The notes below the pieces were generated by a model. It searched no databases, was not told the origin of the DNA, and was given only the letters and a program-made list of their open reading frames with translations. The position numbers were made by a program, and so were the translations under genes. Below, piece by piece: positions 1 through 2,871 of a stretch of DNA of 19,453 nucleotides (positions are counted from its first letter, which is position 1; each line of letters opens with the position of its first letter). Source of the DNA: a virus (Duplodnaviria; Heunggongvirae; Uroviricota; Caudoviricetes); IMG/VR virus record IMGVR_UViG_2675903433_000028, positions 1 through 19,453 of that record. One strand, 5' to 3'.

Positions 1-23
1 TGTTCACTCATTCTGAATGTCAT
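1..23 (-). CDS. tfa: Tail fiber assembly protein, 5' end only (runs off the left edge of the window)
   Basis: Reverse complement of 1-23 reads ATG ACA TTC AGA ATG AGT GAA CA = M-T-F-R-M-S-E, which matches my recollection of enterobacterial Tfa N-termini. The ATG overlaps the tail fiber stop (TAATG), the usual stf-tfa arrangement. Only 7 codons are visible. Confidence 0.5.
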
Positions 24-499
24 TATGCAAGCCTCACAATATAGTTAAATGCGATGTTTTTTACGGTGTTTTCTTCGTTACCCGTAGCGTTAACGGTGAT
101 GGTGTGTCCGTGGGGACCAATAATGACAGAATGGGCATGAGCACCAATGCCGATAGTGTGGTTATGGGCACCGATATATACATTGTGAGCATGCTCGCCT
201 GCGCTCGACGTGGTACCAGTACCTAACGCAGCGTTAAAACCGGCTGATACACCATTCCCCGCGCCAGTGTGACCAACAGGTATATTGTGTGAATGATTTC
301 CAGCGCTATTCGTAGTTTTTGTGCCGTAATCAAATGAACTGGTCGTTTTAGTACCGTAATCAAACGACGATGTGGTTTTCGTCCCCAAATCCGTACTGGA
401 TGCGCTGGCGCTGTGGGTGTGCGATTTAATGCCGTCCTGTTCCTGAGACAATACGGCACGACCACTGCCGGGCTTGCCCTTAATCGTCCAGCCACGCAT
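23..499 (-). CDS. Side tail fiber, C-terminal receptor-binding segment (second reading frame of a split tail fiber gene)
   Basis: Translation ends ...[49 protein letters not shown], with His-x-His repeats and a C-terminus typical of lambda Stf / T4 gp37-type distal fiber tips. This frame stays open upstream of the annotated Met to about 553 and reads ...[20 protein letters not shown], so coding in this frame probably begins near 526. Confidence 0.8.
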
Positions 500-2871
500 A
501 TCAGGAATAACGCCTGACGGATAAGCACTGCAAGTTTCGGGTATGCAGATTTGTCAAAAGTCTGCCCCTGCATCAGGGCATAACCAGACGGAACGGTATC
601 TGATGGCCACGGGATTGGTGCGCCGACTGGGTAGCTTTCTGGTGGAAGATTTTTCGAGGTATAAACTTCTGCCCAGTCTTCCTCAAAACCATAACCGTCT
701 CTTGAAGAACGGTAGAACAGACCACCATTTCTGTAATGCGCCTTCATCTGCAAGGTCGGGCAACTTCCGACTCCGGTATAGAAGTTAACCAGAATATAGC
801 TGTCGGCAGAGCGAATGACATTGTAAGCGCCTGATTCGGCATTCCAGGGAACGCCCCCATCCGCATCGGCATACGTATCCGTTGCTCTTCTGGCAAAAGC
901 AGCAACATGCGCAGCGGTTAAAGTGATATCAGTAGAACCATCAAACGAGACGCCATTGATAGTACATGCTGTCTGCAACTTGGTCGCTGTAGCCGCATTA
1001 CCAGAGGTGTCCTGATCCCCTTTGGCATTGACGCCGGGAATTGAATCTTTTGACGTATAGACCTGCGCCCATTCAGACCAGTTGGCAGAATCAGTATCAC
1101 GCCGCGAACGGATATGTACGGGCGCATGGTCACCGCTCGTGCCACTCCAGCCAATGAATAACTCACCTTCGCCAGCAGCGGTGGCACCTTTAAGGTGAAG
1201 CACATTGCCATAGGGGGAAGGGTAGCCATTGTTGTATGCCTCATACAGCTGAATCCCGGATGTTCCCTGTGCATTCGCCTCTAGGGCCGTTACGCGACCG
1301 CGAGATACCAGAGTATTGATATTAATGTCAGCCGAACCATCGAATCTGACGCCATTAATGTTTATGGCTGTTTTTAATTTCGTCGCGGTGTCGGCGTTCC
1401 CTGTCAGCGCCCCGGTGATCCCACCGTTGAAAGTCTGGCGTGCACTCCATTTGTTAGCCGTGCTCAACAGGGGGATCTTTTCACCGCTTGTGCCAAGTTC
1501 TCTTAAATCAAGGTATTGGATAACAGCAAGGACGCTTGTTTTGGCCAGAATATCGCGACCGACTGACGTTAAGTCAGTCTGAGAAATAGTGTCTGTACCG
1601 GTAAAGTACGGCAATTTATTTGCGCCTGTAGCAAGACCAGCAAGCGCGGTTAAAGTTGCATCCAGAGGCTGTTTGCCTGCCAGCGCATTTGTCATTGTTG
1701 TCGCAAAGTTCGGGTCATTACCAAGTGCTGCGGCAAGCTCATTCAGGGTATCAAGAGCTTCTGGTGATGAACCAACCAATGCGGATATGGCAGCTCTTAC
1801 ATAAGCGGTCGTAGCAATCTGCGTGTTATTCGTACCCTGTGCAGCGGTAGGCGCAGTAGGTATTCCCGTTAATGCAGGACTTGCTAAAGGAGCTTTAAGA
1901 GCCAGAGCATTGTTGATAGTTGTGCTGAAATTCGGGTCGTTATTGATCGCAGCAGCTATTTCTTTAAGCGTATCCAGTGTGCCAGGTGCACCGTTGATAA
2001 GTGCCGTTATAGCTGCCTTAACAAAGGCTGTATTTGCGATCTGCGTGCTATTTGTACCTTGCGCTGCCGTCGGCGCGGTTGGCGTTCCTGTCAGACTCGG
2101 GCTTTCTATTGGCGCTTTGGTATCAGCAAGATCTTTTACAGACTTAACGGCTTTAGGGGTAGCCGCCATTGTTTCGCTGTCGCTGTTAGTTTCGCTACTG
2201 AGCTGAACTAATCCCTTTTGCGTTGTGCTTGCATCCTGCGCCGTATACTTACTGTTCGCCAGATCGTAGGCTTTTTTAACTGCCAGCGAACTTGCAGCAA
2301 CATCACTTCTGCTACTGGTTACAGAGTCTGAAATATCAATGCCGATCGTGCGGTTAATACGCTCGGATGTATCAATCATCTCCTGGGTAATGGCTGATAC
2401 TCCAGCAGGGATATTCACCGTACAAACAAGCAGCTCCCCATCTCCTAACTGATATGAATCGGTATAGGTTCTGGTAACAAATTCAGCCGCATGAATATGT
2501 GACGCGGTATTAACCTGATAGGTATCCTCTCCAAGGAGGTATCTTCCCTTCAGCACAATTGCATATTTCTTGCCTGCACTAAGTGCAAGAGGAATATCCG
2601 TACGTTGCTGAATAGTTACCTGGTAGAATTCACCAATATCCACTGACGCTGCGCCAGCAGTTTTATCACCATCCACAGAGGTGATTAACAGGTTCATCCC
2701 ACCGCCAGGCTTAGGTAAGAAACCGGCATAAAATCCCGGGTCAACAATCCCCCTGAATTTTCGGTTTAGCGCGGCTGACAGATATGGTTCGTGGTATTGC
2801 ACATCAGCCACCAGAGCCAACGACTCGGGTGATGGGTAAGTAACTGATGTAACAACTGTAACGTCATTCAT
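223..2871 (-). CDS. Side tail fiber, N-terminal and shaft portion (first reading frame; genuine coding probably ends near 526, the remainder down to 223 is out-of-frame read-through)
   Basis: ORF-track ORF 223..2958. The likely start is the ATG at 2871 (MNDVTVV...), with an AAGGA Shine-Dalgarno 8-9 nt upstream and 11 nt after the stop of the upstream gene. It contains tandem ~74-aa shaft repeats ([22 protein letters not shown]......L.TL.E.AAA...DPNF). After ...[12 protein letters not shown] the translation becomes low-complexity ([15 protein letters not shown]...). Confidence 0.8.
313..402. repeat. Three tandem ~30-bp repeats inside the tail fiber C-terminal domain (encode [10 protein letters not shown]-like units)
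   Basis: gtagtttttgtgccgtaatcaaatgaactg / gtcgttttagtaccgtaatcaaacgacgat / gtggttttcgtccccaaatccgtactggat; the protein reads [27 protein letters not shown]. Confidence 0.8.
1660..2110. repeat. Diverged ~222-bp tandem duplication in the tail fiber shaft (two ~74-aa repeats)
   Basis: Plus-strand segments around 1817-1878 and 2039-2100 align (atctgcgtg.tatt.gtacc.tg.gc.gc.gt.ggcgc.gt.gg..ttcc.gt.a..c.gg). The protein-level repeat is obvious in the 911-aa translation. Confidence 0.7.

Follow-up and report, generated by a model that had tools for sequence, protein, structure and literature searches.

A placeholder base accounts for the split reading frame of a phage tail-fibre gene

The tail-fibre gene at one end of the 19,453-nucleotide stretch of viral DNA analysed here (the window) is divided between two reading frames, and the sole cause of the frame change is a placeholder at position 527, where the T of the window stands in for an N and does not have the status of a called base in the source record. 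The split is very probably an artefact of draft short-read assembly, in which case the real phage-plasmid DNA is without it. Beneath the placeholder there is most likely an ordinary, intact S gene of the phage P1 type, encoding 949 amino acids.

Two reading frames and the base between them

Based on the open reading frame (ORF) listing and the sequence of the window, the tail-fibre gene at 2871..23 on the minus strand consists of two ORFs in different frames. The features concerned are as follows.

23..2871, minus strand: tail-fibre gene S; 2849 nt as given in the window, 2850 nt (949 aa) in all homologues
223..2871, minus strand: frame-A ORF; ATG at 2871, stop at 225..223; 781 authentic residues followed by 101 out-of-frame residues, then the stop
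23..499, minus strand: frame-B ORF; 158 aa, with the C-terminal end ...NYIVRLA; frame B is open from 553
527..527, no strand: placeholder base; T in the window, N in CYGC01000056.1; relatives have CG, rarely TG

The original prediction held that this gene is split and that one base restored near 524-528 joins the frames, and this is true: one G put in at 526/527 produces a 2850-nt frame encoding 949 aa. The repaired protein is identical to an intact protein found in 115 contigs (P0001) except for V782 in place of A782, so the continuity of the frame is not due to chance. The break is located at codon 782 of the repaired protein, in the middle of the Collar domain. In the gene call of the source assembly, the frame-A ORF is an 882-aa product (16480..19128 of the retrieved contig). 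The frame-B ORF, which aligns to the T4 gp37 tip (2XGF), is no independent gene but the authentic C-terminal part of S, in which the receptor-binding tip has its His-rich needle and its head.

A natural two-gene architecture, in which a shaft protein is accompanied by a separately encoded receptor-binding tip or adaptor, would agree with the fact that the downstream ORF begins with an ATG and holds the complete needle and head. However, homologues have one gene at this site and the break cuts the Collar domain in two, and for these reasons such a design is virtually excluded. Moreover, frame A continues through 101 nonsense codons, and no ribosome-binding (Shine-Dalgarno-like) sequence was seen by eye in the bases just 5' of the ATG at 499.

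The whole window corresponds to CYGC01000056.1 (19,453 bp) of the draft assembly GCA_001283185.1, which was found via the exact Sit protein. The 19,350 bases of this contig that were retrieved (L019) equal the window everywhere except at 527, where the record has N and the window has T. The N, at position 18824 of the retrieved contig (cttgcagNgcttatcc), is the sole non-ACGT letter in the 19,350 bases, whereas the window contains none. Because one placeholder is present where relatives have two bases, the record is one base short and the frame shifts. In effect, the N in the record shows the break to be an assembly problem, the outcome that the original prediction had itself set against its reading. 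The N lies 527 nt from the end of the contig.

Compared with the nearest relatives, the change is CG to T (GCAGCGGCT to GCAGTGCT), that is, a substitution plus the loss of one nucleotide. The placement of the missing base in a GG/CC doublet, as originally proposed, is therefore correct only when measured against the rarer GTG (Val) allele, and not against the nearest relatives.

Programmed recoding or a phase switch, in which ribosomal -1 frameshifting or transcriptional slippage near 527 restores some full-length fibre, has a next to negligible probability. The geometry only is in its favour: frame B lies at -1 with respect to frame A, and they share 328 nt of overlap. However, no X XXY YYZ heptamer is present in frame A within this overlap (the sole such heptamer is out of register), the longest homopolymer in it is A5, in the homologues examined one frame covers the whole protein (949 aa in 117 of the best 120 clusters), and the record has N at this place. 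Both mechanisms are all but excluded, including the slippage-dependent expression switch that had been suggested at first, for which neither an in-register heptamer nor a run longer than five is found in the 328-nt overlap.

Gene identity and domain composition

Sequence comparison indicates that the window comes from a P1-like (Punavirus) phage-plasmid and represents its tail and baseplate region. Its best DNA matches are 87-102 kb Escherichia coli plasmids from STEC O26, O103 and O111 (e.g. pO111_2) and phage P1. The order of the window ORFs, sit, pmgA, bplA, 16, R, S and U, matches the annotated map of P1, in which S is gene 19 and belongs to the R-S-U operon, and the Pfam families Phage_P1_Gp16 and Phage_P1_tail_fiber_R match the neighbouring genes in the relatives and in the source contig. 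The split gene is S, the tail fibre gene of a P1-like myovirus phage-plasmid, and not the gene of a lambdoid side fibre. S is the tail fibre and the determinant of host specificity in P1 (PMC9024508). The label "side tail fiber" that the gene had received is accordingly imprecise; the gene is of the P1 S type, and its C-terminal tip module is common to lambdoid Stf and T4 gp37. The features of S and of the genes on both sides of it are listed below.

2883..3317, minus strand: gene R (P1 tail-fibre/baseplate protein), directly upstream of S; PF26881 Phage_P1_tail_fiber_R on a gene of identical length in relatives
933..2871, minus strand: part homologous to P1 S, within a match of about 95.5% identity to NC_005856
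2871..1511, minus strand: constant part Sc, from the P1 annotation
1501..1520, no strand: cix-like Cin recombination site, with one mismatch to P1 cixR; crossover equivalent at 1510/1511, at the Sc boundary
1510..933, minus strand: part lying in the 0.6-kb inverted repeat of the P1 C segment, from the P1 annotation
26..639, minus strand: receptor-binding tip of the T4 gp37 type (collar, needle, head); 2XGF, E-value 3.8e-79, aa 745-949
482..624, minus strand: phage tail Collar domain PF07484; aa 750-797 of the repaired protein, E-value 3.9e-11; interrupted at codon 782
1..22, minus strand: first 22 nt of a tail-fibre assembly gene (U/Tfa-like); its ATG and the stop codon of S overlap (TAATG), and the contig ends there

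S in the window is a mosaic in which a P1 S shaft is fused to a tip of the gp37/Stf type, a chimera that is already known and common. As in phage P1 S, a cix-like site is recognized at the Sc/Sv junction, and nucleotide identity is about 95.5% from position 933 upward, that is, over Sc and the first ~190 codons past the cix site; positions 933-1521 give a second match, to the other copy of the P1 repeat. This situation is different from that of P1 in the last ~310 codons (1-932), where the gp37/Stf-type tip exists instead, and positions 932..23 are not P1-like. Pfam found Phage_fiber_2 repeats and the Collar domain in the repaired protein. The alignment to 2XGF over the last ~205 aa takes in an exact 23-residue motif, the His-x-His repeats and an 11-residue C-terminal motif; the architecture of such tips is collar, needle and head (PMC7291167). 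The T4 gp37 tip (2XGF) and the related C-terminus of lambda/Rac Stf (StfR) share the tip and the His-x-His repeats with the S gene of the window, with 95-99% DNA identity to stfR. However, T4 gp37 and lambda Stf differ from it in the shaft, the module here being carried on a P1 shaft, and the head region between the His repeats of T4 gp37 differs from that of the window in both sequence and length.

Since inversion is how S of P1 is assembled, a Cin/cix invertase crossover was considered as the origin of the break and rejected; the cix-like site at 1501-1520 is ~1 kb away and unrelated to it. The invertible C segment of P1, with cin and the alternative Sv'/U', has no counterpart next to S in the close complete relatives, in which S and U precede an acetyltransferase gene, a 237-nt tfa fragment and lydA, in this order. 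This comparison is one of relatives, the contig of the window ending in U. Since neither cin nor Sv'/U' occurs by S in the close relatives, the fibre is probably fixed rather than invertible.

Homologues and the repeat around the break

All of the close relatives have one intact gene of 949 aa, and at the place of GCAGTGCT in the window they read GCAGCGGCT or, rarely, GCAGTGGCT. NZ_CP058684.1, pO111_2, pO26_EH031_1, pO103-1 and others are annotated with one 2850-nt tail fibre gene, after which comes a tail-fibre assembly gene, 579 nt long in the first three of these. In 117 of the best 120 homologue clusters the product is a single protein of 949 aa. Codon 782 is naturally polymorphic and is GCG, GCC or GTG, with V782 in six of the 117 clusters; the string in the window can therefore be read either as CG to T or as the GTG allele minus one G. 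In three sister contigs with an identical Sit protein (L018, L020 and L021) the site reads GCAGCGGCT; L018 contains the complete S of 949 aa, and in L020 and L021 the frame of S stays open across the site as far as the contig end. Positions 1-2000 of the window show no difference from L007 other than the break, and the 526 nt downstream of the break equal the intact allele.

The broken allele is a singleton, with no other record in any of the collections searched. A megablast search of 5,426 complete E. coli genomes gave no 100% match to it among 3815 matching records, and its exact 30-mer had 0 matches in viral, genome and metagenome contigs. The products of the two ORFs were not found on record by exact product look-up, and the source itself was probably missed in this look-up since the N alters its recorded product. 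A plain deletion of one G from an existing allele was tried as well: the query repaired to GTGGCT had no 100% match (best 99.7%), and this candidate was rejected, even though some intact related proteins do have V782.

The rest of the contig gives no indication of widespread decay or sequencing error, and the problem is local to the repeat. All of the other genes in the window are full length in comparison with P1 and the plasmids. The other indels are either compensating pairs in divergent parts of sit, or changes in the length of A/T runs outside annotated genes. Three such run-length differences from relatives, at 11730, 13707 and 15308, all appear to lie outside annotated genes; P1 has the same A7 run, and both T8 runs are reproduced in the contig L022 described below, one of them also in a sister lineage. 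Because these run-length differences are either reproduced in an independent assembly or shared with P1, a generally poor sequence quality was rejected as an explanation. As for long-read errors at methylation motifs (Dam, Dcm, EcoKI), no such motif was seen at the site by eye, and the N makes an explanation of this kind superfluous.

The tip module has 95-99% DNA identity to chromosomal lambdoid stfR genes, and the 301 nt around the break are present in 3705 of the 5426 complete E. coli genomes, in up to six places per genome. The tip module is thus a multi-copy repeat in E. coli genomes, several near-identical copies being carried by lambdoid prophages. An independent Logan contig (L022, from run ERR175731) is 100% identical to the window from 14054 to 595 and ends at 595, which is 68 nt before the N. 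The identity over 13.5 kb suggests that ERR175731 is likely to be the read set of GCA_001283185.1. Homology to the chromosomal stf paralogues starts at about 624-633 of the window (query_from 45-54), and the stretch 624..595 thus gives 30 nt in common with the paralogues before L022 ends. By assuming a k-mer of ~31 for the Logan assembly, an overlap of ~30 nt with a paralogue would cause branching of the de Bruijn graph and a repeat-induced break. The numbers fit, and the end of L022 may well be such a break.

Origin of the break and comparison with a real lesion

We infer the following course of events. The assembly graph would have broken in the repeat of the gp37/Stf-type tip, and either the resulting pieces were linked or an ambiguous consensus was retained, in both cases with a placeholder of one N that had the wrong length. 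The real DNA at the site would then be GCAGCGGCT or GCAGTGGCT. What is directly observed is the N, the identity of its flanks to intact alleles, the repeat status of the module and the break of an independent contig at the repeat. These features are those of the N and short-gap artefacts of short-read repeats: a single N near the end of a contig and inside a multi-copy repeat, flanks that equal the intact allele, a placeholder whose length is not equal to the true length, and an independent assembly that breaks at the repeat boundary. How exactly the N arose in GCA_001283185.1 is likewise inferred. Of the three options that had been offered for the break at first, a sequencing or assembly error thus agrees with the N at the site, the in-frame homologues and the multi-copy repeat, whereas decay and slippage are not supported.

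A genuine and very recent inactivating frameshift in S, namely a real deletion of one G beside an ambiguous base that leaves the fibre of this isolate without half of the collar, the needle and the head, is improbable. The eight-base string is, the N aside, what the record shows, and since residue 782 is polymorphic, loss of one G from a GTG parent would produce precisely the string of the window; the N could then reflect uncertainty between C and T (the natural alleles GCG and GTG) next to a genuine one-G deletion, which argues against the artefact. Loss of fibres by frameshift is also documented for lambda (Hendrix and Duda 1992, cited in PMC12617516 and in PMC7291167). However, the break falls precisely on the one ambiguous base of the contig, so that no base-resolved indel exists at the site; the allele is a singleton across all of the collections, and the independent Logan contig stops before the site, which lies in a repeat where that independent assembly breaks. 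No further decay is seen downstream or in the neighbouring genes. The inactivating mutation by cryptic prophage or tailocin decay that had been considered originally is likewise not borne out, all other genes being full length and the 526 nt past the break being equal to the intact allele.

If the lesion were nevertheless real, the frame-A product would presumably keep the parts for attachment to the P1 baseplate and the shaft, and lose half of the collar and all of the needle and head. Translation would stop ~200 nt short of the downstream assembly gene, whose start overlaps the S stop codon in the intact arrangement. The particles would be fibre-less or tip-less and non-adsorbing, and the element would persist as a plasmid by vertical inheritance only, as a "grounded" phage-plasmid. 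Such a lesion would be the equivalent, arisen in nature, of that in stf of lambda PaPa, and would affect a phage whose fibre sets host specificity, although it would be merely a loss-of-function mutation of a known kind in a single isolate.

The lambda stf frameshift (Hendrix and Duda 1992) would be the closest precedent for a real lesion, by analogy. There, a fibre gene with a gp37-like tip is likewise divided into two ORFs by a difference of one base. However, the lambda PaPa lesion is base-resolved, reproducible and phenotypically characterised, whereas the site in the window is an N and is unique to one draft record.

The assembly artefact, which we prefer as the explanation, carries a caution: when ambiguous letters are turned into ordinary bases, false "frameshifts" are produced at positions that had no called base, notably in the repeated tips of tail fibres. 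In practice, masked or ambiguous letters are to be checked before frameshifts are interpreted.

The allele to which S of the window belongs is an ordinary and very common one, the combination of a P1 S shaft and a gp37/Stf-type tip being found on hundreds of STEC-associated P1-like plasmids.

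The ambiguous base at position 527

The entire draft contig CYGC01000056.1 (assembly GCA_001283185.1) corresponds to window positions 1-19453. At position 527, the site of the apparent frame break in the P1-type tail-fibre gene S, the window has T whereas the record has N, which is the sole N of that record. Ambiguity codes seem to have been turned into ordinary bases before the scan, and such a conversion can give rise to spurious features.

The tip of S and its downstream region

Codon 893 of S (window position 195) lies in the His-rich tip, in the motif SSAG-E/G-HAHNV. Among otherwise near-identical intact fibres, this residue is variable: in the 117 clusters of 949-aa S proteins found among the best 120 homologue clusters, it is G in 62, E in 51, V in three and R in one, and it may be relevant to host range.

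A cix-like Cin recombination site, with one mismatch to cixR of P1, is located at window positions 1501-1520, at the boundary of the constant part (Sc) of S. In the close complete relatives, cin and alternative Sv' and U' genes are absent, and S-U is followed downstream (9601-10900 in the related locus L001) by a gene for a hexapeptide acetyltransferase and a fragment of the tail-fibre assembly gene tfa, 237 nt long, on the opposite strand. Taken together, the cix-like site and the downstream gene content look like an invertible C segment that has decayed or been replaced.

Polymorphisms in sit and in homopolymer runs

The tape-measure/transglycosylase gene sit has variant sites at 6527-6534 and 8271-8353. 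Compared with many relatives, two of its codons are altered by a +1 and a -1 indel separated by 6 nt, a pair that also occurs in pO26_EH031_1. The gene also exhibits an in-frame length polymorphism, with 1110 aa in the window versus 1134-1140 aa in other P1-like elements. Two T8 runs are each one base shorter (T7) in most close relatives:

11730, T8 run just upstream of the DUF4760 gene
13707, T8 run in the immI upstream region

Because both recur in an independent Logan contig (L022, run ERR175731), these runs appear to be real polymorphisms.

The non-P1 end, the cargo slot and RNAs of the immI region

Homology to P1 stops at 18232, within the would-be rlfB, of which an ORF of 96 aa is left (17999..18289). 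Beyond this point, the final 1.2 kb (18233-19453) matches a region of O103-type P1-like plasmids that carries the annotation "AAA family ATPase / hypothetical protein". When 18100-19453 was used as the query, a portion of it proved to be highly repetitive among E. coli genomes (6723 records). This end contains an unannotated ORF, with no match in Pfam:

18345..19163, minus strand, 272-aa ORF

A variable cargo slot (11640-13542) lies between pmgC and the immI region. In the window, a gene for a DUF4760 protein occupies it together with two small ORFs. In other P1-like elements, the genes at this place are simABC, SH3_3 or phytase-like ones. The 158-aa ORF of the slot in the window is assigned to PF27224 (YfjT) in precomputed matches for relatives and the source contig, and had no match in a separate Pfam scan. 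Two RNAs were recognized by Rfam upstream of icd/ant1:

13776-13854, isrK (58.5 bits)
13898-13985, C4 antisense RNA (76 bits)

Both are expected in the immI immunity region of P1.
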